A stretch of 64,000 bases of DNA, taken from positions 7,217-71,216 of the forward strand of contig JBAZUE010000004.1 of NCBI GenBank assembly GCA_041661605.1. The letters are read 5' to 3'. Source of the stretch: Candidatus Omnitrophota bacterium. Its GTDB lineage: Bacteria; Omnitrophota; Gorgyraeia; Gygaellales; Profunditerraquicolaceae. Both the position numbers and the translations under genes were made by a program. The notes under the pieces are model-generated. The model was not told the origin of the DNA, ran no database searches, and saw only the letters and a program-made list of their open reading frames with translations. This document shows positions 43,019 to 59,800 of this stretch, one piece after another; position 1 is the first letter of the stretch; every line of letters begins with the position of its first letter.

Positions 43019-43195
43019 GGCGGGGAAGCGCGCAACTCCGGGGTGTGCTGCTCGCCGCGCGGGGAAGCGCGCAACTCCGGGGGTGTGCTTCGGCGCAATT
43101 CTCGCGACTTCGAGAGCGCGCGCCTAAAGGCGCGCGCTCCGTTTATGTCGCTCCAGTATGCGCCTGTGCACACCCCCGGAGCTGCGCGCTTCGCG
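43019..43195. repeat. Mosaic repeat: 2 tandem a-units plus A-type nested hairpin (copy A1)
   Basis: GCGGGGAAGCGCGCAACTCCGGGGGTGTGC twice (43019, 43057), then core GCGCAATTCTCGCGAC...GTCGCTCCAGTATGCGC, then the exact inverted arm GCACACCCCCGGAGCTGCGCGCTTC. Confidence 0.9.
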
Positions 43196-43273
43196 GGCGC
43201 GAATGCACCGGCGCGCCCGCGCAGTTCGTCCCCTCCCCCACGGCGGCAGGCCCGCGGCGCGTGCTTTCGGGAA

Positions 43274-43296
43274 GCGCCGCAACGGAATGGTGACGC
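43274..43296 (+). repeat. Motif C copy (GCGCCGCAACGGAATGGTGACGC)
   Basis: One of six related copies (43274, 44536, 46899, 48851, 50042, 51257), each lying between a composite repeat and a plus-strand gene. Confidence 0.6.
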
Positions 43297-43528
43297 AGTC
43301 AGGTTGGATCGGCGCTACCGTGTCTTGGCAGTCGCCTCTCCCACGAACCTCGTTCTCCATGCACCCTCGTGTGCCCCACTCGTCATCTTGCCCGGCGGCT
43401 GTTTCTCCCGGCGGTTGCCACGGAGGCAACGCACTGGTATTCTTCACCCACGGTTGGGAGAGCGGTCGTATGACCGTTCGTCGCCTGCAAGGGCGCCCAG
43501 CCGTTTTTCGTTGCCTGGTGCCGACGAA

Positions 43529-44317
43529 GTGAACCTCTTATACGTCGATGAATCGGGCGACACCGGCAAGACCGGAACAGATCACTTGGTTCTCGGGGCG
43601 GCTGCGTTGTTCGAAGGTAAATGGCGCTATCTACGCGTGGCGCTCGCGAAGCTCCTTAAGAAGTATTTTCCTGATGAGGCCAGACGTCCGCCGGAGATTC
43701 ACTGCTCGCACTTGCGGTCCGGAAAGGGACCGTTTGCGGCGCTCTCAATCAGTGAACGCTTTGGATTCTTCGCGGAGCTCTGTGCGCTCCTCAACGACTT
43801 TCGCGACTCGGAAATCACTTTGTTCGCGGTCGTATACCACAAGCAGGCATGGTTCGCGAGAAACCCGGGAGCCACGGGTGACGCCCTGTATTCGGCCGCC
43901 TTCGCTGATCTGGTGTCGCGGTTCGACTTGTTCTTGAAGCGTCGCTATCGCGAAGGATTCCCGTCAAAGGGTCTCATCATCGCCGACCCGCGAAACTCCA
44001 CCCTGAGTCGCGCGCTCCGAAAGTGCGTTCTCCAGTTTCATGACACGGGCACGCCGTGGGCAACGATGGAAAACGTCATAGAGTCGGTGCTGTTTCTCGA
44101 ATCACACGAATCACCAGGGCTTCAACTGGCGGATCTCTGTTCCTACGCCGTGTGGCGGACCATTGCGGCCGGTGACGACGCGCTGGCGCGGAAATTGAAG
44201 TACTGCTTCGACCGCGAACCGATGACGTCGACGGGCGCTGCTGGGAAGTGGCACGGCATGAAATACGTCGGGAGCGACCCCATCGTGCGCGAGCGGGTGA
44301 CGACGGTCTGGACCTGA
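43529..44317 (+). CDS. DUF3800 domain protein
   Basis: GTG start in frame with track ORF 43043..44317. VNLLYVDESGD and LQLADLCSY match the DUF3800 conserved motifs as I recall them. Confidence 0.7.
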   Translation: MNLLYVDESGDTGKTGTDHLVLGAAALFEGKWRYLRVALAKLLKKYFPDEARRPPEIHCSHLRSGKGPFAALSISERFGFFAELCALLNDFRDSEITLFAVVYHKQAWFARNPGATGDALYSAAFADLVSRFDLFLKRRYREGFPSKGLIIADPRNSTLSRALRKCVLQFHDTGTPWATMENVIESVLFLESHESPGLQLADLCSYAVWRTIAAGDDALARKLKYCFDREPMTSTGAAGKWHGMKYVGSDPIVRERVTTVWT

Positions 44318-44359
44318 GGTCCCAGTCTCCGAGCGCCCTCCGTTCTCCTTCCCCCAAGC

Positions 44360-44515
44360 GGCAGGCCCGCATCTCCGTCCGCGCAGGCGGCCGCAGGACC
44401 CATAGACGGCGCGCGCAGCGCGCTCGTAGGGTCCGAGAGCCTGCGCGGTCGGAGATGCGGGCCTGACGCGCCCCCGCCTGCGCGGTCGGAGATGCGGGCC
44501 TGACGCGCCCCCCCG
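44360..44515. repeat. B-type nested hairpin with duplicated right arm (copy B1)
   Basis: GGCAGGCCCGCATCTCCGTCCGCGCAGGC, core GGCCGCAGGACCCATAGACGGCGCGCGCAGCGCGCTCGTAGGGTCCGAGA, then GCCTGCGCGGTCGGAGATGCGGGCCTGAC twice. Confidence 0.9.
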
Positions 44516-44614
44516 TCAGCGGGCTTTCGGTGACAGGCGCAAGCGAATGATGGTCATGCTCCGCCATCGGGGCACCTTGCCCATTCGGTTTCCCCGTGCC
44601 AATGTCGGTATCCC

Positions 44615-46510
44615 ATGCGCAATAGGCACCTGCTCCTCCTCGACCTCGTCCTCCTGGCGCCGCTACCGTTTCTGGTGGTGGCGCTCCGCATGGAGTCGTT
44701 CCAGTGGGGGGCCGACCTCGCCCAGGCAGTTGCCGTCTATGCCGCGCTCGCCCTCCCCATTCGCATCGGCGCGGTGCACCTGAGCGGCATTTACCGCTTC
44801 CTCTGGAAGCACGCGTCGCTGGTTGAGCTGGGGCGCCTCGTCTTCGCCTGCGCCATCGCCGCGGTTCTCACATTCATCACCGGTGCCGTCCTCATCCGCG
44901 GCCTCGGGCTCGCGCCCGTTCGCCTGCCATTCTCGTCGCTGCTCCTCGACGCGCTGTTGGCCTCGGTCGCCCTGGCCGTGCCGCGCATCGCGGTGCGCTT
45001 TGCCGCGCGCAGCCCCGTGGCCAATCGCCGCGGCCAGCACCGCGCGCTCATCGTCGGCGCCGGACACCTGGGCCAGAGCATCCTGCGCGAGCTCGCGCAA
45101 TCGCCGGACACCGCACTGGGCATCCTCCCCGTTGCGTTCGTGGACGATGATTTCCGAAAGCACGGCCAGATGCTCGGCGGCCTTCCCGTGGTCGGCGACT
45201 TGTCCGACCTCGGCCATGCCATTGGCACCTGGCAGGCCACCGAGGTCATCATCGCCGTGCCGGGGGCCAAGGGGGCCTTCATTAGAAAGGTCGTGGACGC
45301 CGCCGCCCCGCATGGCATCACGCCGCGCATCGTCCCCGGTGTGCGCGACATCATTGACGGCCGCATCAACCTGCTCGCCTTGCGCAAGGTGGCCATTGAA
45401 GACCTGTTGCGCCGCGATCCAGTGGTCACCGACCTGGCCGCTGTCGCCGAACTCGTGCGCGGCAAGGTGGTGATGGTCACCGGCGCCGGCGGCTCCATTG
45501 GCAGCGAACTCTGCCGCCAGATCGCCCCGCTCGCGCCAGCCAAGCTGGTGATCCTGGACCACAGCGAGAACCAGGTCTTTGAGATTCACAACGAACTGCT
45601 CAGGCATTTCCCGCAGGTTCGTTATGAGGCGGTCATTGCCGACATCCGGCAGGCGCGTCGCCTGAGCCAGGTGTTCGACCGTCACTGCCCCGACACCATC
45701 TTCCACGCCGCGGCGCACAAGCACGTGCCGCTCATGGAAGAGAACGTCATGGAAGCCATCACCAACAACATCCTCGGCACCGGCAACCTGGTGAATGCGG
45801 CCGCCGCCAGCAGCGTGCAGACATTCGTGTTCATTTCCACCGACAAGGCCGTGCGCCCCACCTCGGTGATGGGATGCACCAAGCGTGTGGCCGAGCAGGT
45901 GGTGCGCGCCGCTGCATACCGCACCGGCCGCAACTTTCTGTCGGTGCGCTTTGGCAACGTGCTCGGGTCGCGCGGCTCGGTGATCCCCACGTTCATCAAG
46001 CAGATCGAGGAGGGCGGCCCTGTGACCGTCACCCACCCCGAGATGAAGCGCTACTTCATGACCATCCCCGAGGCCGTGCAACTGGTGCTGCAGGCCGGGG
46101 CGCTGGGCCGCAGCGGCGAGCTGTTTGCGCTCGACATGGGCGAACCCGTGAAGATCGTGGACCTCGCCCGCGACCTCATTCGCCTGTCGGGGCTGGAAGA
46201 GGGCGTGGACGTGGACATCGCGTTTAGTGGTGTGCGCCCCGGCGAGAAGCTGTACGAAGAGGTCTTCTTCGGGCACGAGGCCGTGGAGCCCACCGCGCAC
46301 CCCAAGGTGTTGCGGTCGCCGGGAGATCCGGTGGACGAGAACACGGCCGAGCTGATTGAGGCGCTCATTCAGGACGCGCTGAGTGACCCGGATAACTGGG
46401 GCGCGTTGCGGCTGCAACTGCGCGCGCTGGTGCCGGACTTTCAGGCGCCGCCGCCGCCGCCGCCGATTGAGCGTGCGTCGGATCCTTCGAGGCGGCTCAA
46501 GCTGGCTTAG
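44615..46510 (+). CDS. CapD/WbpM/PglF-type polysaccharide biosynthesis protein, copy 2 (paralogue)
   Basis: 631 aa, colinear with copy 1 over the whole length (MRNRHLLLLD..., VTGAGGSIGSEL, FISTDKAVRPT). Confidence 0.9.
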   Translation: MRNRHLLLLDLVLLAPLPFLVVALRMESFQWGADLAQAVAVYAALALPIRIGAVHLSGIYRFLWKHASLVELGRLVFACAIAAVLTFITGAVLIRGLGLAPVRLPFSSLLLDALLASVALAVPRIAVRFAARSPVANRRGQHRALIVGAGHLGQSILRELAQSPDTALGILPVAFVDDDFRKHGQMLGGLPVVGDLSDLGHAIGTWQATEVIIAVPGAKGAFIRKVVDAAAPHGITPRIVPGVRDIIDGRINLLALRKVAIEDLLRRDPVVTDLAAVAELVRGKVVMVTGAGGSIGSELCRQIAPLAPAKLVILDHSENQVFEIHNELLRHFPQVRYEAVIADIRQARRLSQVFDRHCPDTIFHAAAHKHVPLMEENVMEAITNNILGTGNLVNAAAASSVQTFVFISTDKAVRPTSVMGCTKRVAEQVVRAAAYRTGRNFLSVRFGNVLGSRGSVIPTFIKQIEEGGPVTVTHPEMKRYFMTIPEAVQLVLQAGALGRSGELFALDMGEPVKIVDLARDLIRLSGLEEGVDVDIAFSGVRPGEKLYEEVFFGHEAVEPTAHPKVLRSPGDPVDENTAELIEALIQDALSDPDNWGALRLQLRALVPDFQAPPPPPPIERASDPSRRLKLA

Positions 46511-46525
46511 TTCGGAGTTCGCCCC

Positions 46526-46660
46526 GCAGGGAAGCGCGCAGCTCCGGGGGTGTGCTTCGGCGCAATTCTCGGGTCTTCGAGAGCGCGCGCCTGACGGCGC
46601 GCGCTCCGTTTGTGACCCTCCAGTATGCGCCTGCGCACACCCCCGGAGCTGCGCGCTTCG
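46526..46660. repeat. a-unit plus A-type nested hairpin (copy A2)
   Basis: Same architecture as A1; the inner helix is changed to GGGTC/GACCC. Confidence 0.9.
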
Positions 46661-46711
46661 TGTGCGTTGGGGCATCGTCGCGCCCGCCGTCGTTGGCCCC
46701 TCCCCTCGAGC

Positions 46712-46863
46712 GGCAGGCCCGTATCTCCGTCCGCGGCAGGCGGCCGCAGGACCCATAGACGGCGCGCGCAGCGCGCTCGTAGGGTCCGAGAGCCTGCGCG
46801 GTCGGAGATGCGGGCCTGCCGCGCCCCCTCCTGCGCGGTCGGAGATGCGGGACTGCCGCGCCT
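46712..46863. repeat. B-type nested hairpin, right arm x2 (copy B2)
   Basis: Read directly; same core as B1. Confidence 0.9.
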
Positions 46864-46974
46864 CGAGCAGAGCTGCGCGCCGGCGATGAACCGGTGTCTG
46901 GCGGGACAATACGGTGACGCACGCGTGGGCTCTCGCGGTCATCATGCGCGATGCACGCAGACTGCCGGTGATCG

Positions 46975-47316
46975 ATGCGCCTTCCAGGTGCGGAGCGCGC
47001 GTATGTGGACCCCGCAAAAGTGCGGGACTACCTCCTGTCGCCGGTCCACCCCCAGGGCCGGTTCAAGGCCGACTTCTTTCGAGGACTCGGCTACACTCGC
47101 GCGAGGTGGCCGCGTCTTCAGCAGGATTTCAAGGATGGGGCGACTTCTGATGGAGCAACCCCAGCCGCGCTGACGGTCTTCGGGCAGTTTTTCGAATTGC
47201 GTGTTATGCTTCGAGGACCGAGTGGTCGCGCGGCGCTCCTCGTAACCATCTGGATCATTCGGAGGGAGGAAGATTTCCCTCGATTCGTCACAGCGTACCC
47301 CGGAGCACCGAGATGA
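46975..47316 (+). CDS. DUF6883 domain protein
   Basis: 113 aa. VDPAKVRDYLLSPVHPQGRFKADFFRGLGY...FPRFVTAYP matches the DUF6883 pattern as I recall it. Confidence 0.6.
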   Translation: MRLPGAERAYVDPAKVRDYLLSPVHPQGRFKADFFRGLGYTRARWPRLQQDFKDGATSDGATPAALTVFGQFFELRVMLRGPSGRAALLVTIWIIRREEDFPRFVTAYPGAPR

Positions 47317-47534
47317 CGTTCCGAGAACTCGATACCGTGGTGCTCATCCGCGATTTGCCGGAGCACGGTCTGCGTCGCGGTGATGTGGGCACGATCGTGC
47401 ATTTGCACGCACACGACGCGTTCGAGGTTGAGTTCATGAGCGCGTCCGGTCGGACACACGCCGTACTAGCGCTTACCGCCGCCGATGTGCGCGCCGCGGA
47501 AGACCGGGACCTCGTGGCGGTGCGGAGCCTGTAG
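47313..47534 (+). CDS. DUF4926 domain protein
   Basis: 73 aa. LDTVVLIRDLPEHGLRRGDVGTIVHLH...FEVEF is typical DUF4926. 4-nt overlap with the DUF6883 gene, a recurrent pair. Confidence 0.7.
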   Translation: MTFRELDTVVLIRDLPEHGLRRGDVGTIVHLHAHDAFEVEFMSASGRTHAVLALTAADVRAAEDRDLVAVRSL

Positions 47535-47536
47535 CG

Positions 47537-47816
47537 CGCGGGGAAGCTCGCAGTTCCGGGGGTGTGCTGCTCGCGCCGCGGGGAAGCACGCAACTCCGGG
47601 GGTGTGCTTCGTGTGCGTTGGGGCATCGTCGCGCCCGCCGTCGTTGGCCCCTCCCCTCAAGCGGCAGGCCCGCATCTCCGTCCGCGCAGGCGGCCGCAGG
47701 ACCCATAGACGGCGCGCGCAGCGCGCTCGTAGGGGTCCGAGAGCCTGCGCGAACGGAGATGCGGGCCTGCCGCGCCCCCTCCTGCGCGGTCGGAGATGCG
47801 GGACTGCCGCGCCCCC
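47537..47816. repeat. Composite repeat: 2 a-units (no A hairpin), linker, B-type hairpin with right arm x2 (copy B3)
   Basis: Read directly. Colinear with 46526-46863 except for the absence of 46560-46660. Confidence 0.9.
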
Positions 47817-47820
47817 GTCG

Positions 47821-48204
47821 TCAGCGGGCCCGGCGCCTCGCGTCGTAGGGCGCCGCCGGCTTCTCCCGGACCATGGACAAAAGGAGCGCCGGGCGCTTCT
47901 CCGTCAACTGGAGCAGGCGCAGCGCCGCGCCGTCGGGCTGCCGCTTCCCCTGCTCCCACGACCGCACCGTCTCGGCGCTCACGTTCAGCGCCTGGGCAAA
48001 CACGGACTGCGACAGCTTGAGGCGTGACCGAAGCTTGCTCACGCGCAGGCACGAATACTCGGGCGCTGCGGCAACCGTGCTGTCGCGTGCCGTGCGCGCG
48101 ACGCGGCGCACGCGCACGCGGCTCCCCGTCCTGCCCTGTTCGAGGTCACGGAGTTGCTCGAACGCCTCCACAACTTCGTCGCCCAGCTTTCTCGGCTTGG
48201 TCAT
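47821..48204 (-). CDS. XRE-family HTH antitoxin (HigA-2-like)
   Basis: 127 aa. RSRLKLSQSVFAQALNVSAETVRSWEQGKRQPDGAALRLLQL HTH; downstream of the toxin gene. Confidence 0.75.
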   Translation of the reverse strand: MTKPRKLGDEVVEAFEQLRDLEQGRTGSRVRVRRVARTARDSTVAAAPEYSCLRVSKLRSRLKLSQSVFAQALNVSAETVRSWEQGKRQPDGAALRLLQLTEKRPALLLSMVREKPAAPYDARRRAR

Positions 48205-48207
48205 TGA

Positions 48208-48513
48208 CTACCTCAGGTCGGAGACGATCTGGCGAATGCGCTTCCGCTGTTCATTCGTGAGATCCGCTTGCACGTTCTTGGTGTACGCGGTCAGTACGTA
48301 CACACGACCGCGTGCGAGTCTCAGGAAGTACAGGAACCGCGCCCCAGCGCGCTTGCCACGCCCCGGTATCGCCACGCGAACCTTGCGTGCGCCACCCAAA
48401 CCAGGAACCACGCTGCCCACGTCCGGCTTGGCGATCACCAGCGCTTCAAATGCCCGCTCGACCTCGGCGGGAATCAGTGAGCGCGCCAGCCGCTCGTACG
48501 GAGCGAGGTACAC
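48208..48513 (-). CDS. RelE/ParE-superfamily toxin (HigB-2-like)
   Basis: 101 aa (GTG start). GLGGARKVRVAIPGRGKRAGARFLYF...VYVLTAYTKNVQADLT pattern. Confidence 0.7.
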   Translation of the reverse strand: MYLAPYERLARSLIPAEVERAFEALVIAKPDVGSVVPGLGGARKVRVAIPGRGKRAGARFLYFLRLARGRVYVLTAYTKNVQADLTNEQRKRIRQIVSDLR

Positions 48514-48589
48514 GAACTCGAGGAACTGGGTGCCGAGGTGACGCGGTATGAGCTAGTATAGTACCTAGTACCAGTGTAAGCAAGCACGA

Positions 48590-48874
48590 CCGGGAAGCGC
48601 GCAGCGCCGTTCGCGCCACGCGGGGAAGCGCGCAGCTCCGGGGGTGTGCTTCGCTCGCCTTCTCCTCCCCCAAGCGGCAGGCCCGCATCTCCGTCCGCGC
48701 AGGCGGCCGCAGGACCCATAGACGGCGCGCGCAGCGCGCTCGTAGGGTCCGAGAGCCTGCGCGGTCGGAGATGCGGGCCTGCCGCGCCCCTCCTAGGCCG
48801 TCGAGCATTCGCGGGAGCGGTTACCCGACGCGGTGTGCGGGCCTTCGAGGGGCGGCGCAATGGAAAGGTGACGC
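48590..48874. repeat. Composite repeat: 2 a-units, B-type hairpin (copy B4), conserved tail ending in motif C
   Basis: Read directly. The tail 48796-48874 is about 75 nt colinear with 49990-50065. Confidence 0.9.
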
Positions 48875-48945
48875 TCGAGGCGCCCTCGCATAGTACGCTG
48901 GGGCGACGAGACCGTCTCTTGCGCCCTCTTCGCAATACTGCTAAG

Positions 48946-49392
48946 ATGCCAGAATCAGCACTCGTTCTCCGTCGGAAACCGCTCGTCTTCGTTGCATCGT
49001 CCCGAAGGGACCTCCAACGGATGCCGGAGGGCGTGCAGGACTCCTTCGGATTCAAGCTCGACCGCGCGCAGATCGGCAGGCATCCGGTGGGGGCGCGCCC
49101 GTTCGGGGAGGGACTGCCTGCGGCCATCCTGAAACTGACCGCTGACGACGGCGGAGAAACCTACCGCGCCGCGTACGTCGTCGAGTTCGCTGGTGTCGTC
49201 TATGTGCTCGACGTTTTTCAGAAGAAGTCGAAGGCTGGTACGAAGACTCCAAAGACCGACAAGGCGCGCGTGAGACAGCGCTACCAGTGGGCCAGACAGC
49301 ATTACGAAACGAATCGGCAGCGTTATCTCGAGGACGCCGAGGCAGCGGCTCTCGTTCCGAGCGCGTCCAAACGCAGGAGAGACGATCAATGA
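48946..49392 (+). CDS. Gp49-like (DUF891) RelE/HigB-type toxin
   Basis: Internal ATG of track ORF 48646..49392. PLVFVASSRRDLQRMPEGVQDSFGFKLDRAQIG...YRAAYVVEFAGVVYVLDVFQKKSK pattern. Confidence 0.75.
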   Translation: MPESALVLRRKPLVFVASSRRDLQRMPEGVQDSFGFKLDRAQIGRHPVGARPFGEGLPAAILKLTADDGGETYRAAYVVEFAGVVYVLDVFQKKSKAGTKTPKTDKARVRQRYQWARQHYETNRQRYLEDAEAAALVPSASKRRRDDQ

Positions 49393-49787
49393 GTGGCAGA
49401 CGACGCACGCCCTCCCGCATGGCCGCGGCGCCAGGTAACGCGCCGAGCGAGGTCCTGTTCGAAGAGGGGAGCGGTAACGTGTTCGCGGACCTCGGTTTCG
49501 CTGACGCGGCTGAGCACCAGGCCAAGGCCGACCTCTGCCATGTGATCATCAACATCGTCGAGGATCACGGTTGGACGCAGAAAAAGGCGGCCGACGCGCT
49601 CGGCATCGCGGAGTCCGACATGTCGGACCTGATGAACGGCAAGCTGCGTCGCTTCAGCCGCGAGCGTCTAGAGCGCTATCTCTACGCGCTCGGCATGGAA
49701 ATTCGCATTCAGGTTTATCCACGCCCCGCGGGCAGGCGGCCTGCTGGAGTCTCAGTGCAGGTGTTCGAGGGCAAACCCGCGAGGTAA
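49389..49787 (+). CDS. XRE-family HTH antitoxin
   Basis: ATGA overlap with the toxin gene. GWTQKKAADALGIAESDMSDLMNGKLRRFSRERLERYL HTH. Confidence 0.75.
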   Translation: MSGRRRTPSRMAAAPGNAPSEVLFEEGSGNVFADLGFADAAEHQAKADLCHVIINIVEDHGWTQKKAADALGIAESDMSDLMNGKLRRFSRERLERYLYALGMEIRIQVYPRPAGRRPAGVSVQVFEGKPAR

Positions 49788-50065
49788 GGCACTGCGCAGC
49801 TCCGTTCGCGCCACGCGGGGAAGCGCGCAGCTCCGTTCGCGCAGGCGGCCGCAGGACCCATAGACGGCGCGCGCAGCGCGCTCGTAGGGTCCGAGAGCCT
49901 GCGCGGTCGGAGGTGCGGGACTGCCGCGCCCCCTAGCCTGTCCGAGAGCCTGCGCGGTCGGAGGTGCGGGCCTGACGCGCCCCTCCTCGGGCCGTCGAGC
50001 ATTCGCGGGGGCGGTTGCCCGACGTGGCGCGAGCTTTTGGGGGTGGCGCAATGGAATGGTGACGC
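49788..50065. repeat. Composite repeat: 2 a-units fused directly to the B-type core (copy B5), right arm x2, tail with motif C
   Basis: Read directly; starts at the nucleotide after the TAA stop. Confidence 0.9.
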
Positions 50066-50189
50066 GATCTCGGCGGCGTGGTCTATCGTATCGTACCCAC
50101 CAAGAGCGGACGATAGATGCCGCCGTGAACGCACGAATTCATGGAACTCACCGACCAGTCGGTGGTTGCCCTGCAGGAGTCATTCGACT

Positions 50190-50207
50190 ATGGTACAATT
50201 GTACCAT
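50190..50207. promoter_or_regulatory. Perfect 18-nt palindrome ATGGTACAATTGTACCAT, candidate TA operator
   Basis: Read directly, 18 nt upstream of the vapC-like ATG. Confidence 0.5.
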
Positions 50208-50224
50208 TAGCATCGGACACTCCC

Positions 50225-50617
50225 ATGATCGTCGTCGATACGTCTGTCGTGCTCGCGGTGCTCCTGATCGAGCCCGAACGGACGACAATCCTCAAGCGCA
50301 CGCGCGGCAAGCGCATACTCGCGGCCCCGAGCCTAGGGTGGGAAGTCGGCAATGCACTGGTGGCCTTGGTACGCCGGCGGCGGGCCGATTACCCAGCCGT
50401 TGAGCGGGCATGGCGGTCGTTCGGACGCATTCACCTCGCGTACGCGAACTGCGACATCTCGGCGGCGCTGCGGCTCGCAACGGAGGCGAGTCTGTACGCC
50501 TACGATGCCTACGTCATCGAGACAGCGCGAGCGGCGGGCGCCCCGCTGCTGACGCTGGACAAAAAGCAGCAGGCCGTGGCCGCCGAGCGTGGTGTGGAAA
50601 TTCTGGAGATCACCTGA
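50225..50617 (+). CDS. PIN-domain toxin (VapC-like)
   Basis: MIVVDTSVVLAVL start. Acidic PIN residues include D5 in MIVVD and D96 in AYDAYVIETA. Confidence 0.8.
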   Translation: MIVVDTSVVLAVLLIEPERTTILKRTRGKRILAAPSLGWEVGNALVALVRRRRADYPAVERAWRSFGRIHLAYANCDISAALRLATEASLYAYDAYVIETARAAGAPLLTLDKKQQAVAAERGVEILEIT

Positions 50618-50883
50618 TGCGCGAATACACGTTCTCCCGGGCTCGGCAACAGCTCGCCAGTCTCCTGGATCTCGCGCGCCAGGAAGGCGGTGTGCTCATC
50701 CGGCGACGCGATGGTCAGGTGTTCGAAGTCAAGCCCGCCAGGCGCACCGGCGGCTCGCCGCTCGACGTGCCAGGAGTCGATCTCGAACTCGCGACCGGCG
50801 AGATGATGGCGGCACTGGCCGAGTCACGCGCGTCTGGTGCCCGGTTCGTGCGGGAACGTCCGGCCAGGAAGCGACGGAAGTAG
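50617..50883 (+). CDS. Phd/YefM-type antitoxin, encoded downstream of the PIN gene
   Basis: MREYTFSRARQQLASLLDLARQEGGVLIRRRDGQVFEV; TGATG stop-start overlap with the PIN gene. Confidence 0.65.
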   Translation: MREYTFSRARQQLASLLDLARQEGGVLIRRRDGQVFEVKPARRTGGSPLDVPGVDLELATGEMMAALAESRASGARFVRERPARKRRK

Positions 50884-50890
50884 TACGCTG

Positions 50891-51281
50891 CGCCGCGGGG
50901 AAGCGCGCAACTCCGTTCGCGCCACGCGGGGAAGCGCGCAGCTCCGTTCGCGCCGCGCTGGGAAGCGCGCAGCTCCGGGGGTGCGAATGCATCGCTGCGC
51001 CCGCCGTTCTCCTCCCCCAAGCGGCAGGCCCGCATCTCCGTCCGCGCCGGCGGCCGCAGGACCCATAGACGGCGCGCGCAGCGCGCTCGTAGGGTCCGAG
51101 AGCCTGCGCGGTCGGAGATGCGGGCCTGCCGCGCCCCCTCCTGCGCGGTCGGAGATGCGGGACTGCCGCGCCCCCTCCTGCGAGGATGGAGATGCGGGAC
51201 TGACGCGCCCCCCGATGCGGCGGAGAGGCTGACCCGCAGCGGCGCGTGCGTTTGGCGGCGGGCGCAATGGAATGGTGCCGC
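50891..51281. repeat. Composite repeat: 3 a-units, B-type hairpin with right arm x3 (copy B6), motif C
   Basis: Read directly. a-units at 50891, 50925 and 50956; right arms at 51102, 51140 and 51177. Confidence 0.9.
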
Positions 51282-51351
51282 GTTTTCGGCGGCGCGGGTT
51301 ATCAAGGTGCTCCTGCTCGAAGCAGCTTCCCGCGAGCGCCGGAGAAACGTC

Positions 51352-51600
51352 ATGAATGCACTTGCCGCATGGCTCAGATCCACCCAGACTTCCGACATGG
51401 CAGACGATCGAGACATCCGGCCAGAAGCTCATCGGCTCGTAGAGGGACTTCCCGCCGGCGCCGGCTGGGACGATCTCATGTACGAGATCTACGTCCGGCA
51501 GGCCATTGAGGCGGGACTGGCCGACGGAGACGCCGGGCGAACCGTGGATCACGAAACGGCCATGTCGCGCATCCGCGCACGGATTCGGCGCGCGTCCTGA
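51352..51600 (+). CDS. Putative antitoxin partner of the ParE-like toxin
   Basis: Internal ATG (alternative 51397). WDDLMYEIYVRQAIEAGLADGDAGRTVDHETAMSRI is a motif I associate with small antitoxins upstream of ParE/RelE genes. 1-nt overlap with the toxin start. Confidence 0.55.
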   Translation: MNALAAWLRSTQTSDMADDRDIRPEAHRLVEGLPAGAGWDDLMYEIYVRQAIEAGLADGDAGRTVDHETAMSRIRARIRRAS

Positions 51601-51890
51601 TGTTGCCGCTCCGTTGGTCGGAGCAGGCACTCGAGCATATGGGTGGCATCGCGGAGTACCTGAGCTTGTCATCCCCGCTGTACGCCGAGAGCGCGATCCA
51701 GCGTATCGAAGCCCGAGTGCAGCAGCTGCAACTCCACCCGGAACTCGGCAAGCCGGCACGCGAATCTAGTGATCCTTCAGTTCGTGAGCTGGTGGACGCA
51801 CCGTACCGGGTCTTTTATCGCGCGCGCGCCGACTGCATTGAGGTGATTGCTGTGGTGCATGGTCGAAATCAGGTTCCGACTTCGCTCTAG
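51600..51890 (+). CDS. RelE/ParE-family toxin
   Basis: 96 aa. LRWSEQALEHMGGIAEYL...YRVFYRARADCIEVIAVVHGR pattern. Confidence 0.8.
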   Translation: MLPLRWSEQALEHMGGIAEYLSLSSPLYAESAIQRIEARVQQLQLHPELGKPARESSDPSVRELVDAPYRVFYRARADCIEVIAVVHGRNQVPTSL

Positions 51891-51980
51891 ATGCGTTCGC
51901 GGGTGCGCTTGAGATCTACGGTGACGTCGCGGCGGTACGAACGGCCTGATCTTGCCGCTCCAGGGGTCTGCTCGTCGCCT

Positions 51981-52228
51981 GGCGGGGAAGCGCGCAGCTC
52001 CGGGGGTGTGCTGCTCGCGCCGCGGGGAAGCGCGCAGCTCCGGGGGTGTGCTTCGCGTGCGAGCGGACTGCAGTTCGCCTCCCCCCAAGCGGCAGGCCCG
52101 CATCTCCGTCCGCGCAGGCGGCCGCAGGACCCATAGACGGCGCGCGCAGCGCGCTCGTAGGGTCCGAGAGCCTGCGCGGTCGGAGATGCGGGCCTGCCGC
52201 GCCCCCCTGGGCTCTGGGGGACTGCCGA
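51981..52228. repeat. Composite repeat: 2 a-units, linker, B-type hairpin (copy B7)
   Basis: Read directly; ends 2 nt before the hflX stop codon. Confidence 0.9.
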
Positions 52229-53516: not shown

Positions 53517-53546
53517 ACATCAAATCTAGTTCGGGTGGCAGAGTCA

Positions 53547-53773
53547 GCGCACGGCAGGGGTCGGATCGCGCAAGCTCTCGGACCCTACGGGCTGGCATCG
53601 CAGGCGCGCGCGACAGGGGTTCGTTCGCGCAGGCTCTCGGACCCTACGGGCTGGCATCGATCGCGCGCACGGCAGGGGTTCGCCCGCGCAGGCTCTCGGA
53701 CCCTACGAGCGCGCTGCGCGCGCCGTCTATGGGTCCTGCGGCCGCCTGCGCGGGCGAACCCCTGCCGTGCGCG
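53547..53773. repeat. B-type element in flipped orientation: ~57-nt unit x3, only the last with a complete core and inverted arm (copy B8)
   Basis: GCGCACGGCAGGGGT...CGCGCAGGCTCTCGGACCCTACG repeated at 53547, 53600 and 53658. The third continues AGCGCGCTGCGCGCGCCGTCTATGGGTCCTGCGGCCGCCTGCGCGGGCGAACCCCTGCCGTGCGCGCG. Confidence 0.9.
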
Positions 53774-53998
53774 CGTCCTTTCGATAGATCGAGTGGCCGG
53801 TTGCGCCAGCCCGACCCGTGCTGCGCGCTGACGGCATTCCCGCAGGCGCCTTGGCTGCGCTCGGCGCCATCGGCTCCGCGCGCCCCGGGAACGCTGGGAG
53901 CGAATGCGAAGTGCGGGGATTCGATGCGCACCGCGACCAACCGGTGACGCTGCTAGCCACGGGGGCCATTAGCCTCGCACTCGGATGCCAACCGAGTA

Positions 53999-54345: not shown

Positions 54346-54694
54346 GATCAAGCTTATTCCGTGGGACGTCGCAGACCACCTGAGGACGCCCTACGAAATG
54401 GCGCTCTACCTCGAGGCGACGTTCGAGGAGTTCGGCCATGACGGCCGAGCGGTGCTACGGGCCCTGGGCGGCATCGCGCGCGCCCAAGGCATGACCTCCG
54501 TCGCGCGGCGGTCAGGGCTGGGGCGTGAGAGCCTCTACAAGGCGCTCTCTGGCGAGGGAAACCCGAGCTTCGACACCGTGCTCCGCGTCATGGACGCCCT
54601 CGGCCTGCGCCTCACCGCGTTGGTAAAGGAGCCCGCGCCCGCCCCGCGCACCCGCACCGCGCGCAAACGCCCGACGCGGAAGCGCGGCACTTAG
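54329..54694 (+). CDS. Addiction-module antidote protein (HigA-family HTH)
   Basis: PWDVADHLRTPYEMALYLEATFEE...GMTSVARRSGLGRESLYKALSGEGNPSFDTVLRVMDALGLRL. No ATG available; TTG 54329 or GTG 54296. Confidence 0.75.
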   Translation: MIAKSKIKLIPWDVADHLRTPYEMALYLEATFEEFGHDGRAVLRALGGIARAQGMTSVARRSGLGRESLYKALSGEGNPSFDTVLRVMDALGLRLTALVKEPAPAPRTRTARKRPTRKRGT

Positions 54695-54700
54695 CTCTCT

Positions 54701-54812
54701 GCGCGCACGGCAGGGGTTCGCTCGCGCAGGCGGCCGCAGGACCCATAGACGGCGCGCGCAGCGCGCTCGTAGGGTCCGAGAGCCTGCGCGGGCGAACTCC
54801 TGCCGCGCGCGC
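54701..54812. repeat. B-type nested hairpin (copy B9) with the alternative arm GCGCGCACGGCAGGGGTTCGCTCGCGCAGGC
   Basis: Read directly, between convergent genes. Confidence 0.9.
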
Positions 54813-54827
54813 TGCAATCGTAAAGAA

Positions 54828-55363: not shown

Positions 55364-55404
55364 TTGACTGGGTGGCCCATGGCAGCTATCTTTGGTATAT
55401 ACCA
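55364..55404 (+). promoter_or_regulatory. Candidate promoter TTGACT-17-TATCTT followed by palindrome TGGTATATACCA
   Basis: Read directly upstream of vapB. Confidence 0.45.
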
Positions 55405-55420
55405 TTCAGCGAGCGATTCG

Positions 55421-55702: not shown

Positions 55703-56103
55703 CGGGAGCGAGTGTCTGCCTCGACACCGACCTCTGCGTCGACTACTTGCGTCGCCGCGCGGCTGCCGGGCCGTTGGCTTTCGCCCAGCTTCCGGTATCC
55801 GACGCCTGGATTTCGGCCGTGACGCTGGCCGAGCTGCGGTTTGGCGCCCAGCGCTCGGTGCATCGCGCACGTGAGAATGCGAAACTGGCTGAGCTGCTGG
55901 CCGTCGTGGGCGTCCGCGCATTTGATGCCCGAGCAGCAGAGGCGTCCGCCACGGTGCGCACTCACCTCGAGGCCACCGGACAGCGCATCGGACCCCTGGA
56001 CTCGCTGATCGGCGCCCACGCGCTCGCCGAAGGTGCCGTGCTCATGACGCGCAACGTTCGCGAATTCTCGCACATTCCCGGCCTCGCGATCGCCGAGGCG
56101 TGA
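55696..56103 (+). CDS. vapC: PIN-domain toxin VapC
   Basis: 135 aa. [11 protein letters not shown]...[11 protein letters not shown]...[27 protein letters not shown]. Confidence 0.85.
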
Positions 56104-56113
56104 GCCCCCGCCC

Positions 56114-57523
56114 CTACTCGTCTGTTGTCTCTCTGTTTTCTCTCTGTTGTTTCTCTGTTGTTTCTCTGATTCTCGCCCACCACTCCAGTCTCTTGGATAT
56201 CTCTTTTTCAAACCCGAACTCCGTGGGTTTGTAAAATGTCCGGCTCGCCAACTCATCAGGCAGATAGTCCTGTGGCGTGTATCCCTCGGGCACTGAATGC
56301 GCGTACGAGTACCCTGCCCCGTAGCCGAGTTCTTTCATGAGCTTGGTGGGCGCATTGCGAATGGGCAGCGGCACCTGCGCCGCCGGCGTCTCGCGCGCCG
56401 CTTCCAGCGCCGCTCCCCACGCCGCATACACGCGATTGCTCTTGGGCGCAGTCGCCAGGTACACGGCCGCCTCGGCGAGCGCGAGTTCCCCCTCGGGCGA
56501 GCCGAGGAAGTGGTAGGCGTCGCGCGCGGCGATGGCGATCTGCAGCGCGCGCGGATCGGCGAGCCCCACGTCCTCGCTGGCAAAGCGCACCGTGCGTCGC
56601 GCGATGTACATCGGGTCCTCGCCGCCCTCGATCATGCGGGCGAGCCAGTAGAGCGCGCCTTGTGGGTCGCTGCCGCGAAGCGCCTTGTGGTAGGCGCTGA
56701 TTGTGTTGTAGTGGCCCTCTCCCGACTTGTCGTATTGGGCGAAGCGGCGTTGGAGTGCGTCGAGGATGATGGGAGATTGGAGAAGGGAGATGGGCGCACC
56801 TGCGGAATCGCCCATCTCCCCTCTCCCACCTCCCATCTGCATCAATACTGCCGCCTCGAGCACAGTAAGCGCCCGCCTCGCGTCCCCATCTGACTCTCTC
56901 GCCAGAATCTCCAGCGCGTCGTCGTCAATCGTCACGTTCAGCGCACCCAGTCCGCGGTCGGAGTCGGTGAGGGCGCGGGTGACGAGGCCCTTGATGTCGT
57001 CGGGGCTGAGCGGCTGGAGCACGAAGACGCGCAGGCGGCTCAGGAGCGCGCCGTTCAGTTCAAACGACGGGTTCTCGGTGGTGGCGCCGATGAGCGTGAG
57101 CAGGCCGCTCTCGGCGTGCGGCAGCAGGTAATCCTGCTGGCCCTTGTTGAAACGGTGGATCTCGTCGACAAAGAGGATCGTGCGGCGGCCCGCATCGCGC
57201 AGCTTGTGCGCCGCGTCGACGATTTCGCGCAGGCGCGGCACGCCTTCGCTGACGGCGCTGAACGGGACGAACTCGCCGTGCAGGTAGATCGCGGCCAGTC
57301 GCGCCAACGTCGTCTTGCCGGTGCCGGGAGGGCCCCAGAAGAGGATTGAGCCCGTCTGGCCGCCTTCGAGGGCGACGCGCAGGGGCTTGCCGGGGGCGAG
57401 CAGGTGCTGCTGGCCGGCGACTTCGTCGAGTGTGCGCGGGCGCATGCGCGCGGCCAGCGGCGCAGGGCCGGCTGCGGCGGCGAACATCGAAGGCTGGCTT
57501 GTTGCAGGACGCTTGGAGGCCAC
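56114..57523 (-). CDS. rarA: Replication-associated recombination protein A (RarA/MgsA AAA+ ATPase)
   Basis: 469 aa. [23 protein letters not shown] and the MgsA C-terminal domain. An unusual [17 protein letters not shown] tail is encoded by the 11-nt repeat. Confidence 0.9.
56121..56175. repeat. 11-nt tandem repeat (TCTGTTGTTTC-like) x5, AT-rich, inside the 3' end of rarA
   Basis: Units tctgttgtctc, tctgttttctc, tctgttgtttc, tctgttgtttc, tctgattctcg, read directly. Confidence 0.85.
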
Positions 57524-57546
57524 GCTTCAATTTAGCGCGCTTGCGG

Positions 57547-57756
57547 CAGAGCGGCGCAGGTCAGGGGGGCCTTGCTACAGAGCGGCGCAGGTCAGGGGGG
57601 CCTTGCTACAGAGCGGCGCAGGTCAGGGGGGCCTTGCTACAGAGCGGCGCAGGTCAGGGGGGCCGGTCCCGCGCAATTCTCGCGTGAACGGGCGCGCTGC
57701 GCGCGCCGTCTATGCGCTCCAGTATTCGCGGGACCGGCCCCCCTGACCTGCGCCGC
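57547..57756. repeat. 31-nt unit x4 (CAGAGCGGCGCAGGTCAGGGGGGCCTTGCTA) leading into an A-type nested hairpin (copy A3)
   Basis: Units at 57547, 57578, 57609 and 57640. The fourth diverges into the arm GGCGCAGGTCAGGGGGGCCGGTCCCGCG, mirrored exactly at 57727-57754. Confidence 0.9.
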
Positions 57757-57954
57757 GCATCTGTTTGGGCCGCGCTTGTGCCCGCGGCGCGCATCTGCCC
57801 GGGCCGCACATCTGCCCGCGTCGCACCGCCGCCCGCGCCGTTGCGCCGGTCGGGCGAAAGACCGCGATGCGGCGAGCGGCGTTTCGATGATGGTGGCTCG
57901 CACGCGCGGCGCCATGCTGCAGCACGCAATGCGCCTCTTTCTCTTCCTGCTACT

Positions 57955-57970
57955 CCGTAGTATACTACGG
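57955..57970. promoter_or_regulatory. Perfect 16-nt palindrome CCGTAGTATACTACGG containing a TATACT -10-like hexamer
   Basis: Read directly upstream of the truncated toxin/antitoxin pair. Confidence 0.45.
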
Positions 57971-58006
57971 TGTAGCATATTATGACTCGCGCGCCGGGAA
58001 GCTGCA

Positions 58007-58168
58007 GTGAACCCGGCGTTCGTGGAATCGACCAGCCACGCGGAAGTCATCTACCTGCTCAGTGTGTACCGCAAGTCGGAACAGAGCGCCCTGTCCGCCG
58101 ACGACAAGCGGTTCCTGCGGCAACTCGTGGCAATTCTGAAGAGAGCGCCGAACCATGCGTCGAGATAG
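58007..58168 (+). pseudogene. Truncated HigB-2-like toxin (C-terminal ~50 aa only)
   Basis: VNPAFVESTSHAEVIYLLSVYRKSEQSALSADDKRFLRQLVAIL corresponds only to the C-terminal third of toxins such as 48208..48513. A stop lies in frame just upstream. Confidence 0.5.
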
Positions 58169-58475
58169 GTTCGCGGAATTGGTGCAGTCCCTGCGCGAAG
58201 CCATCGATCATTCGCAGGGGCTTCGCAGCCTGCGCACGACTGTGCTTCCAGCTCCACCCCGGCAGATGACCGCTGCGGACGTGCGGCGTCTGCGGCGGGG
58301 ACTCCGCGCGTCGCAGGCCGTCTTTGCCAGCTTCCTGAACGTCAGCCCCCGCCTGGTCCAGGCGTGGGAGGGAGCACGCCGCACGCCGGATGGCCCCGCC
58401 CTGAGGCTGATGGAGCTCGGACTGTCGCATCCCGCTGCGGTCTTTCCTGGCCTCGTTTCGGCGCGGAAGCGGTAG
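58155..58475 (+). CDS. XRE-family HTH antitoxin (HigA-2-like)
   Basis: 106 aa. RRLRRGLRASQAVFASFLNVSPRLVQAWEGARRTPDGPALRLMEL; paralogous to 47821..48204. Confidence 0.7.
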   Translation: MRRDRFAELVQSLREAIDHSQGLRSLRTTVLPAPPRQMTAADVRRLRRGLRASQAVFASFLNVSPRLVQAWEGARRTPDGPALRLMELGLSHPAAVFPGLVSARKR

Positions 58476-58526
58476 GCTTGCCGGAGCGGCGCGCCTGACC
58501 GCGCCGCGCTTCTGAGCGCGCCGAGC

Positions 58527-58940
58527 CTACCGCTTCCGCGCGCGCGGCTTCACGCAGTTCGTGCGCAGGAACGCAGCGAAGTCCGGTTCCTTCATCGCGC
58601 CCGGGGCCACCTCGAGCATCGTGAGCACCGCATCCGCTTCACTGGCGCCGAACTTGGCGCCGTTCGTCTCGAGGAAGGTGATGGCGCAGACGAATGCGAT
58701 GCGCTTGTTCCCGTCAATGAACGGATGGTTGCGCGCGAGGCCGGCGCCGAGTGCCGCCGCCAGGTCAAACAAGTCAGCCGATTCGTCGTACGCCCAGCGC
58801 TGCGGAGCGCGCGCGATGGCGCTCTCGAGCAGTCCGGCGTCTCGAAGGCCAGCCGATCCACCCGACTGCCGTGCGATCATCTCGTGAATGGCCTCGACCG
58901 TCCGTCGGTCGAGCCAGCGCGGTTCGTGACGCGCGGTCAT
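58527..58940 (-). CDS. doc: Fic/Doc-family toxin (death-on-curing)
   Basis: 137 aa with the HPFIDGNKR Fic motif. Confidence 0.9.
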   Translation of the reverse strand: MTARHEPRWLDRRTVEAIHEMIARQSGGSAGLRDAGLLESAIARAPQRWAYDESADLFDLAAALGAGLARNHPFIDGNKRIAFVCAITFLETNGAKFGASEADAVLTMLEVAPGAMKEPDFAAFLRTNCVKPRARKR

Positions 58941-59170
58941 TACTTGGCGAGCTCGGCCAGCGTGTTGCGATAGCGGCGCATGACACTGGCGGCCGCGTCA
59001 AGCGAACGCTCGAACTCCGGGTCTGCCACGCGCACCTCGATGCCGTCGGTGCGCTCGACGAGATACACCGCGTCGCCCTCGCGCACTTGTAGCCGGTCGA
59101 GCATCGCCTTGGGGATGGTGACACCACACGAGTTGCCGATGGCGCGGATCTTGGTCTTCTTCATGCGCAT
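58940..59170 (-). CDS. AbrB/MazE-fold antitoxin partnered with Doc
   Basis: 76 aa. KIRAIGNSCGVTIPKAMLDRLQVREGDAVYLVERTDG SpoVT/AbrB motif; 1-nt overlap with doc. Confidence 0.8.
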   Translation of the reverse strand: MRMKKTKIRAIGNSCGVTIPKAMLDRLQVREGDAVYLVERTDGIEVRVADPEFERSLDAAASVMRRYRNTLAELAK

Positions 59171-59183
59171 CCTCCGTTATCAC

Positions 59184-59199
59184 GAATGTTATAACATTC
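59184..59199. promoter_or_regulatory. Perfect 16-nt palindrome GAATGTTATAACATTC, candidate operator of the antitoxin-doc operon
   Basis: Read directly, 14 nt upstream of the antitoxin start. Confidence 0.5.
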
Positions 59200-59241
59200 A
59201 CGCTCACTGCGCAAACTTCGCTGCGCGTGGCCGCTTGGGGA

Positions 59242-59800
59242 CTGTGCGGGTGGACGCTGTGCGGGTGGACGCTGTGTGGGGACCCGCCCGCGCTCAATTC
59301 TCGGGCCTGACTGGCGCGCTGCGCGCGCCGTCTATTGGGCCCTCCAGTATTCGCGCAGGCGGGTCCCCACGCATCGTCCACGGCCGGCTTCGCGCTGGCG
59401 TCTCCACGCAGCGGCCACGGCTGGGTTCGCGCTGGCGTCTCCGCGCTACGGCCACGGCCGCATTCGCGCGGATGGCTGCCATGCTTCGATCACGCGCGGA
59501 CTCGCGCCAGCGAGTCGCCGCGCCGCGTCCGCACCCCAAGACGGCCGTGGCCGCAGAGCGAGAACCCGTCACAGCGAATACTGGAGGGCCCAATAGAGGC
59601 GCGCGAAGCGCGCCAGTCAGGCCCGAGAATTGAGCGAAGACGGGTTCTCGCTCTGCGGCCACGCGCACAAAACCCGCCAGTCAGGCCCGAGAATTGAGCG
59701 AAGACGGGTTGCCGCTTTGCGGCCACGCGCACAAAACCCGCCAGTCAGGCCCGAGAATTGAGCGAAGACGGGTTGCCGCTTTGCGGCCACGCGCACGAAA
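59242..59800. repeat. Complex repeat block with two A-type cores in opposite orientation (A4 at 59278-59368, A5 at 59543-59666). Also contains a 15-nt x2, a ~37-nt x2-3 and a 64-nt x3 tandem repeat
   Basis: Read directly. The 64-nt period is set by CCAGTCAGG at 59613, 59677 and 59741. Confidence 0.9.

Follow-up and report, generated by a model that had tools for sequence, protein, structure and literature searches.

A nested-hairpin repeat family with covarying stems and convergent doublets in Gemmatimonadetes genomes

Introduction

Repetitive extragenic palindromic (REP) sequences, REPINs and bacterial interspersed mosaic elements (BIMEs) are the described systems closest to the repeats reported here. 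REPINs are inverted REP doublets in which a variable spacer always keeps the hairpin (PMC3337134). The present analysis concerns a nested-hairpin element with 15 copies in a 64,000-nucleotide stretch of contig JBAZUE010000004.1 (positions 7,217 to 71,216; GenBank assembly GCA_041661605.1), hereafter the window, together with its relatives in other genomes. Like REP and REPIN sequences, the units of this family are extragenic, high-copy, lineage-specific imperfect palindromes. They form inverted doublets, they contain a varying segment that keeps the hairpin, and they show largely vertical inheritance, with orthologous sites and positions at gene 3' ends. REP units, however, measure about 25-35 bp, whereas each of the present units measures 100-145 bp and is a complete nested hairpin; in addition, the arms of the two units in a doublet usually differ.

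BIMEs and the NIME/dRS3 repeats of Neisseria resemble the family in their mosaic clusters, built from few modules in fixed relative orientation and joined by linkers, in their varying numbers of tandem partial copies, and as rearrangement hot spots. The present family has no sequence relationship to them, and its modules are the arms and cores of a single hairpin family located between toxin-antitoxin modules. An earlier note, made from the letters of the window alone, had compared the element with REP/BIME mosaics, and this comparison proved apt.

Two further groups of repeats are relevant. ERIC, Correia (NEMIS), BOX/RUP and Nezha elements are likewise intergenic repeats of 100-150 bp that form long hairpins and are co-transcribed with neighbour genes; in the mRNA, the hairpins of Correia and ERIC elements undergo processing. 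These elements have conserved terminal inverted repeats, target-site duplications and little stem covariation, whereas the present units have neither of the first two and their stems diverge freely. The attC sites of chromosomal integrons are hairpins that partly resemble the units, with a conserved structure, a variable stem sequence, an unpaired central region (differently arranged and placed) and a spacing of about 1 kb. Integron arrays also resemble the locus in carrying small open reading frames (ORFs), many of them toxin-antitoxin genes and mostly in one orientation, with a cassette content that varies among relatives. The family differs from attC in lacking AAC/GTT core sites and in having its conserved part at the apex rather than at the base; it differs from integrons in that no intI or attI is nearby, the units also flank housekeeping genes, and the modules have their own promoter-like leader.

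Results

Structure of the units and their number in the window

Each unit was a non-coding, long nested hairpin of 100-145 bp, with a conserved asymmetric apical core and a basal stem that varied among copies. The basal stem comprised 20-30 bp of free sequence in which the two arms were still complementary. Its outermost pairs were often GCGCAGC/GCTGCGC, and the 12-16 bp from there to CGCGAA differed freely from copy to copy. Above the basal stem lay a conserved helix (CGCGAA/TTCGCG), then a conserved asymmetric internal loop (ATTCTCG versus TCCAGTA in type A, TCTCG versus CTGCGGCC in type B), and then P2, a covarying helix of 5 bp. A second loop and a GCGCGC-TGC-GCGCGC apical hairpin were present in the A and B types only.

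The 5' half of type A was laid out as left arm (usually G-rich)-CGCGAA-ATTCTCG-P2 (5 bp)-4-6 nt-GCGCGC TGC GCGCGC, and its 3' half, after the apical hairpin, as CGTYTAT-P2'-CTCCAGTA-TTCGCG-right arm. Type B had the apical hairpin of type A followed by CGTCTAT, the P2 helix GGACCC/GGGTCC, the loops given above and two main kinds of arm, designated Y and Z. Type C, which was seen in related genomes only, was without the apical hairpin and read CGCGAA-ATTCTCG-GGCC-CTTTG-GGCC-CTCGAGTA-TTCGCG.

A covariance model was built from 25 A-type copies as the model of the family. It found exactly 15 units in the window (E < 0.01), beyond which there were only reverse-strand echoes. Six units were of type A and nine of type B, and this was the very list that the earlier note had given. 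A and B were correctly taken there as variants of one family, since a single model finds both, and the outer stems, P2 variants and central-hairpin variants quoted in it were all present in the sequence. The 22-nt core GCGCGC-TGC-GCGCGC-CGTCTAT occurred 12 times in the window at no more than 3 mismatches, against a chance expectation of 0.01; the units at 43.1, 46.6 and 59.6 kb were three more divergent core copies, still recognisable in the sequence. Direct-repeat analysis of the window returned the same families together with tandem partial copies. When seven window copies were folded as single strands, the energies were -40 to -64 kcal/mol, with z values of -6.8 to -11.6 relative to dinucleotide shuffles. 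The family is real and robustly non-random.

Pairing and covariation

In the consensus structure of the 25 A-type copies, 94.1% of cells were paired, compared with 69.6% when 3' partners were shuffled and 31-56% when partners were slid by 1-3 columns. Two-sided changes were found in 23 of the 30 pairs (173 cells), and none of 500 shuffles matched the observed values, so that the stem covariation proposed from the window was borne out. All 16 pairs of the main basal helix were represented by three or four Watson-Crick pair types.

Within the window, covariation rests on the A copies, because the B(Y) copies are near-identical and have one private A.A/T.T mismatch common to all of them. The window B copies are recent copies. 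The proposal that the repeats reflect more than recent copy-paste was accordingly not upheld for these B copies, and it was upheld across genomes. The strong evidence for covariation comes from other genomes.

The outer helix was tabulated in 71 distinct copies. Among 1393 cells, 1263 were Watson-Crick, 27 were G.T (1.9%), 41 were C.A (2.9%) and 62 were other mismatches. Wobble was no commoner than other mismatches on either strand, and the helix is therefore atypical of one selected as RNA. Positional orthologues were taken from six metagenome-assembled genomes (MAGs) with a common ctaA-recX-recA neighbourhood. Between the units upstream of ctaA in L002 and L039, 9 of 20 basal pairs had changed on both sides (8 of them still Watson-Crick) and none on one side only. 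The earlier note had suggested selection on a folded RNA or single-stranded DNA; these counts do not favour the RNA half of that suggestion and point to pairing upheld in DNA rather than in RNA. We infer that both arms evolve in concert at the DNA level, either through selection on a DNA hairpin or cruciform or through intrastrand templated correction of the quasipalindrome. Such correction is an established mutational mechanism in bacteria, and it is possibly arm-to-arm correction, rather than pair-by-pair selection, that operates here.

The loops covaried as well. Among 45 distinct A/C copies, the combination of the left fifth base and the right loop was C/CAG in 36, G/CTA in 5 and C/GAG in 4, the last being that of the C-type, with no mixed combination. 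The covarying positions were non-Watson-Crick in either allele, and we read them as joint contacts of one ligand or as a non-canonical interaction. The unit at 57.7 kb, the P2 of which has only about 3 bp, carried C/CAG, while its positional orthologue in a MAG syntenic with the window (L036) carried G/CTA. Since the two share a rare P2 variant and near-identical arms, the three loop changes arose in place and not by a swap of copies. The asymmetric loops were retained in every copy and genome and are thus under purifying selection.

Distribution of the family

A scan of species-representative genomes with the core pattern returned 91 stretches. The full element was present only in MAGs of Gemmatimonadetes, Gemmatimonadaceae or Gemmatimonas (at least nine genomes), and the remaining stretches were chance matches in coding DNA. 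The covariance model found about 60 units in 18 Gemmatimonadetes loci (about 125 kb), and about 90 units in total were counted in 269 kb of Gemmatimonadetes DNA. In 541 kb from 73 loci of other bacteria there were only two weak model matches (29.6 and 26.2 bits). As far as the sampled sequences go, the family is confined to Gemmatimonadetes, and it also occurs in lake metagenomes.

A 28-mer specific for type B was found in 17 metagenome contigs, several of which started and ended in B copies 1-1.2 kb apart. Four of the 17 (L193, L197, L204 and L208; JGI metagenome 3300014208, Ga0172379) were 100% identical to window segments. Their ends fell exactly in B units, and the repeats therefore fragment short-read assemblies of the organism. 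Viral contigs gave 0 matches to the B-specific 28-mer; a loose A pattern gave 100 matches in them, none with the family flanks and all due to chance.

No Rfam family matched the units at gathering thresholds or at E <= 1. The only Rfam passes in the window were a tRNA and a DUF3800-VI RNA, and all other matches were sub-threshold and miRNA-like hairpins. No description of the family was found in the literature searches made on Gemmatimonas or Gemmatimonadetes combined with REP, RAYT (REP-associated tyrosine transposase), palindromic repeats, integron or attC. Both results agree with the earlier note, which recognised no named family in the sequence. The family is apparently undescribed; the kind of element is already known and does not call for a separate category.

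Arrangement of the units

Wherever two units were separated by a gap of 4-148 nt, they were convergent, a plus-strand unit being followed by a minus-strand unit (22 of 22 pairs; 0 tandem, 0 divergent). This rule covered A/A, C/C and A/B pairs, and of the roughly 90 units about half were members of a doublet. Some units had an arm, or the left half as far as the foot of the apical hairpin, in additional copies, which were arranged in tandem with periods of 31-64 nt and lay on the 5' side in unit orientation. Nine units had such extra 5' copies: an X arm at 43.0 kb, Y arms at five B copies, Z halves at 53.5 kb, and those at 57.5 and 59.7 kb. Solo left arms were found where the core and right arm had been lost. 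Altogether, the window contained 10 solo or extra X arms and 7 extra Y arms, in addition to extra tandem left-arm or left-half copies at 53.5 kb (2), 57.5 kb (3) and 59.7 kb (2). The convergent doublets, the polar tandem arms, the solo and extra arms, the covarying loops and the delimitation of toxin-antitoxin modules that themselves vary between genomes are not in the earlier note. A CRISPR-like array was rejected, the repeats being palindromes of 130 nt that are spaced by about 1 kb and have ORFs in the intervals.

The A unit at 3754-3883 (minus strand; 107 bits with the covariance model; DNA fold -44.4 kcal/mol, z -9.5) lay directly past the stop codon of the minus-strand gene for an acyl-CoA dehydrogenase (3880-5685; Pfam). 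It carried the minority loop allele ATTGTCG/TCCTATA and the central hairpin GGGGCGC/GCGCCCC. The A unit at 43057-43200 (plus strand; 84.6 bits; fold -61.4 kcal/mol, z -11.5) had X arms and the extended central hairpin GAGCGCGCGCC/GGCGCGCGCTC; it lay 53 nt past the first capD paralogue and had an extra X left arm on its 5' side at 43022-43048 (plus strand). Also found by the covariance model was a second A unit whose arms were of the X kind and whose central hairpin was extended; it lay at 46524-46667 (plus strand), 14 nt past the second capD paralogue. It was the left partner of a convergent A/B doublet, of which the right partner was a B(Y) unit at 46697-46834 with one extra 5' arm at 46830-46857 (46697-46857 together, minus strand). 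The two capD/WbpM-like paralogues (41076-43004 and 44615-46510) had a stretch of 297 nt in common (84% identity) close to their 3' ends, and the syntenic MAG had only one copy. Each paralogue is followed by an A unit with X arms, which indicates a segmental duplication that included the element.

The other B(Y) units were all on the minus strand. One lay at 44345-44481 with an extra 5' arm at 44477-44504 (44345-44504 together), one at 47648-47785 with one extra 5' arm (47648-47808 together), one at 48661-48797 (covariance model; fold -61.3 kcal/mol, z -8.5), one at 51008-51144 with two extra 5' arms (51008-51204 together), and one at 52087-52200, adjoining the 3' end of hflX. The B copy at 49.86 kb (unit 49826-49917, minus strand) had an X/Y hybrid right arm and one extra 5' arm at 49949-49976, the whole covering 49817-49976. 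Solo X arms, all on the plus strand, were located at 47540-47607 (two), 48591-48649 (one partial and one full), 50897-50986 (three) and 51984-52051 (two). At 47540-47607 the A core and right arm were missing between two TTCG repeats, and the orthologous position in L192 and L024 was occupied by a full A unit.

At 53547-53785 (plus strand), two tandem left halves (Z arm plus left core, 59-nt period) preceded a complete B(Z) unit at 53653-53785 (fold -63.8 kcal/mol, z -9.4); the spacer here separates hflX from a divergently oriented Gp49/HI1420 toxin-antitoxin pair. The other B(Z) unit lay at 54690-54822 (minus strand). At 57540-57766 (plus strand), three tandem left arms with a 31-nt period preceded a complete A unit at 57635-57766 (fold -60.9 kcal/mol, z -11.6). 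A convergent A/A doublet was formed by the units at 59257-59390 (plus strand) and 59538-59670 (minus strand). The right partner had two tandem left halves on its 5' side (64-nt period, 59663-59805), and this array (59538-59805) came directly after the ZIP transporter gene. Three tandem 37-nt repeats at 59363-59473, between the doublet partners and on the 3' side of the 59.3 kb unit, may or may not be related to the arms and did not obey the 5'-side placement of extra arm copies.

Genomic setting and partner genes

All curated copies were intergenic. A/C units usually began 0-50 nt after a stop codon, in the sense orientation of that gene; based on automatic gene calls, about 18 of those within 100 nt of a gene end were sense and about 3 antisense. 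This bias largely follows from the convergent-doublet arrangement. B units showed no orientation bias. About 10 of 85 motif-located units lay in divergent spacers, examples in the window being those at 48.7, 53.7 and 57.7 kb.

Between 43 and 59 kb, the units separated a DUF3800 gene, the two capD paralogues, hflX, rarA and an LEA_2 lipoprotein gene, and they also bounded about nine toxin-antitoxin or addiction modules at a spacing of about 1 kb (Pfam). The first five modules (46858-52086) were DUF6883+DUF4926, HTH+RelE (minus strand), HigB/Gp49+HTH_37, PIN+Phd, and ParE with an antitoxin without a family. Those further on, to 59 kb, were Gp49/HI1420, MazE/PIN, a truncated HigB-like/HTH pair and Doc/MazE. 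The same toxin-antitoxin families dominated the unit-adjacent ORFs in other genomes and metagenome contigs. The DUF4926 protein of the window was found only on short metagenome contigs. The DUF3800 gene (43532-44317) formed a module bounded by one A and one B unit, and a DUF3800-VI RNA motif (43451-43503, plus strand; 42.5 bits versus a gathering score of 35) lay immediately upstream of it.

A 20-nt motif, GCGCAATGGAATGGTGACGC, was present at 43277-43296, 48855-48874, 50046-50065 and 51262-51281, and also at 187-206 (minus strand). In the arrays it preceded module ORFs by 60-110 nt and was followed 16-19 nt later by a -10-like box, and it was kept before the HigB module in L192. It was rejected as part of a recombination site because the copy at 187-206 lies outside any array, with a -10-like box downstream, and it was read as a promoter. 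Its probable role is that of a promoter -35/UP region or of a regulator site common to unrelated toxin-antitoxin operons.

No integrase, transposase or recombinase domain was detected by Pfam in the genes at 43-61 kb, in 10 of the larger ORFs at 3.9-40 kb or in the ORFs of related loci; an integrase could still lie far from the array. A RAYT/IS200-like tnpA, which the earlier note had named as a gene to look for, did not emerge: with E. coli TnpA-REP and IS200 TnpA as queries, the best tblastn value across the 269 kb of Gemmatimonadetes DNA was E = 0.097. Both queries had been verified, TnpA-REP against PDB 4ER8 and IS200 TnpA by Pfam. A 347-aa ORF recurrent near the elements was rejected as a partner gene, because it was recA in conserved synteny; the UPF0102 gene beside recA was likewise syntenic.

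Rearrangements at the units

Comparison with the syntenic MAG (L006 and L036) showed that the capD-hflX spacer was 45 nt long and without a unit in that genome, versus 5.7 kb with one A unit, six B units and five modules in the window. The MAG had an extra AbiEi module after hflX, and at the position of the single B unit at 54.75 kb it had four B units enclosing three extra modules. The window, in turn, had an extra module at 58.0-58.5 kb. The 59.3/59.6 kb doublet, as one block, was inverted in the MAG (L036).

The order of the modules also changed: it was D, hflX, E, P, H, G in L192 and D, R, H, P, E, hflX, G in the window, with orientations kept, and some junctions of L192 had C-type units in place of B-type units. 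The PIN/Phd-ParE junction held one complete A unit and no B unit in L201; in the window it held three solo X arms and a B unit with three left-arm copies, one paired and two extra. The ctaA/recX spacer was, across four genomes, empty, occupied by a plain hairpin, by one A unit or by two C units. These comparisons showed gain, loss, inversion and permutation exactly at the units between related genomes. The rearrangement data would fit either a dedicated enzyme or ordinary homologous recombination. Since both orientations are present within any palindrome, a pair of similar ones can act in recombination either as direct or as inverted repeats.

One ENA contig (L209, k141_375839, 4390 nt) was 100% / 99.3% identical to window positions 46672-51172. 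It joined 51172 to 46672 through a B copy and was circularly permuted, with both ends in the 48.7 kb B copy. It could be an excised circle of four modules, a tandem duplication or an assembly artefact. It was not counted as evidence because the joining repeat (about 180 nt) is longer than the assembler k-mer (k141 implies k = 141).

Other features of the window

The stretch at 6000-32000 had about 56% G+C, versus 65-69% elsewhere, and held no repeat units. It contained a polysaccharide biosynthesis and export cluster with a DegT aminotransferase, a sugar transferase, GT4 glycosyltransferases, a UDP-GlcNAc 2-epimerase and a flippase, and it may have been horizontally acquired. A Wza-like exporter (37029-39788) was located just outside the cluster. 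A tRNA gene lay at 5790-5863 (plus strand).

A hairpin-forming inverted repeat was located inside the rarA/mgsA coding sequence (56763-56840). It had only sub-threshold miRNA-like Rfam matches and may be a palindromic insertion within the gene. A CT-rich short tandem repeat of TCTCTGTTG-like units at the 3' end of rarA (56120-56170) encoded a repetitive C-terminal tail. Outside the repeat-rich stretch, a HigB/HigA-like pair at 62889-63482 (plus strand) was predicted from its translation.

Discussion

We read the units as a REP/REPIN/BIME-like palindromic repeat family of Gemmatimonadaceae that acts mainly as DNA hairpins, and we give this reading a probability of about one half. The family is placed with elements that function like REPINs and BIMEs, not as a demonstrated member of a RAYT system. 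When the DNA is single-stranded or supercoiled, the units would be extruded to form hairpins or cruciforms, and a trans-acting protein, with its gene elsewhere in the genome, would use the asymmetric loops as its recognition site. This reader of the loops could be a RAYT-like single-strand transposase or nuclease, or another hairpin-binding enzyme. Intrastrand templated repair (quasipalindrome correction), selection or the two together would keep the arms complementary, and new copies would arise as inverted doublets and through local duplication. The palindromes may serve as recombination hot spots that shuffle adjacent small operons, and co-transcribed units would give stable 3' hairpins.

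Several observations weigh against this placement. A RAYT/IS200 transposase was found in none of the 269 kb, and an integrase in none of the genes scanned. Low mobility is suggested by the many A copies that are found at one and the same intergenic position across several genomes. Single A/C units are mostly sense and come right after stops, as would fit an RNA role. REPINs have conserved ends, whereas the present family has a conserved apex and a variable base. A 5' GTAG/CGTC tag by the hairpin was not consistent across types on either strand: B units have CTAC-GA 5' and CGTC 3' of the apical hairpin, and A units have YGCGA/CGTYTAT without GTAG. No target-site duplications were seen flanking the units. 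DNA and RNA levels may both apply, as is accepted for REPs.

The position of the A/C units relative to genes could also mean that the units are structured RNA of 3' untranslated regions, acting in the sense orientation as a U-tract-poor terminator, a 3'-exonuclease barrier, an RNase III site or a protein-binding hairpin, with doublets serving transcripts from both sides. Hairpin bases 0-50 nt past stop codons, the excess of sense over antisense A/C units near gene ends, and the fact that from either side the first unit of a convergent doublet is sense all fit this possibility. The conserved asymmetric loops are typical of protein-binding RNA, and the apical GC hairpin with its CGTTTAT tail at 43114-43139 resembles a weak terminator. 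However, that hairpin was the only part of a unit flagged among the 8 terminator-like sites found at 43-60 kb, versus 10.6 expected, and canonical terminators were rejected since they are not enriched there. The helices show no wobble tolerance and favour neither strand, the positional orthologues are without one-sided intermediates, the B units have no orientation bias, and the sense bias of the others is largely a product of the doublets. Moreover, the units in divergent promoter spacers stand where no transcript ends. An RNA role of this kind is possible but unlikely. That the units are functionless, decaying remnants of miniature inverted-repeat transposable elements (MITEs) or segmental duplications, with covariation due to shared descent, appears extremely unlikely. 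The near-identity of the window B(Y) copies with their private mismatch would be expected from it, and some A copies do lie within the segmental duplication of the capD paralogues; but the core is conserved over at least nine species-level genomes, the arms are near saturation and yet 91% paired, and loop asymmetry and loop covariation are preserved. Strict convergent doublets are not expected from decay either. The outer arms differ among copies, so that no conserved terminal inverted repeats are present and only a weak GCGCAGC end motif is common; with target-site duplications also absent, a MITE reading was rejected. Cross-genome conservation largely refutes decay.

The modules themselves raise the question of a cassette system, in which the units would be folded single-strand recombination sites, like attC or the attP hairpin of CTX phage, and a recombinase would shuffle mostly toxin-antitoxin modules. 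The unit-bounded modules of 43-59 kb and their counterparts in other genomes and metagenome contigs agree with this, as do their presence, absence and reordering with orientation kept among related genomes and the attC-like combination of conserved structure, variable stem and unpaired central region. The join of 51172 to 46672 in L209 is also what an excised circle would show. A conserved 7x7 internal loop and a bulge are present in the units, though arranged and positioned otherwise than the attC R/L boxes. Nevertheless, no AAC...GTT pair of R'' (RYYYAAC) and R' (GTTRRRY) core sites bounded the hairpin base of any A, B or C unit. With no integrase or recombinase among the genes scanned in the window or related loci, an attC identity was rejected. 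Units also flank capD, hflX, rarA, the ZIP transporter gene, ctaA and neighbours of recA, the unit type at one junction differs between genomes, and the circle-like junction of L209 could stem from the assembly. The insertions, deletions and inversions need no dedicated enzyme, since homologous recombination between palindromic repeats accounts for them. Such a system is quite improbable. Cassette shuffling outside the integron type, with an enzyme that reads the asymmetric loops in their two covarying alleles, cuts in or next to the core and excises, inserts and reorders small modules (mainly toxin-antitoxin pairs, but hflX too), likewise has a low probability; if true, it would account for the solo arms, for the polar duplication of arms and for circular intermediates of the kind suggested by the L209 junction.

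With the covariance model, the elements can be annotated and assembly breakpoints flagged in Gemmatimonadetes MAGs. Gemmatimonadota is a widespread and little-studied phylum, and no such repeat family was found for it in Rfam or the literature searched. Four features are combined in the family: the strongly conserved asymmetric apical core, the freely diverging stems that nevertheless remain perfectly paired with no wobble intermediates, the absolute convergent-doublet rule and the two covarying positions of the unpaired loops. Through this combination the units offer a clean natural system for asking whether templated arm-to-arm correction or selection keeps up palindromes in bacterial DNA, and what protein recognises them. 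Should there be a partner enzyme, its specificity determinants are predicted by the two loop alleles. The toxin-antitoxin islands that change in content and order at the elements suggest a shuffling of small operons without integron machinery.

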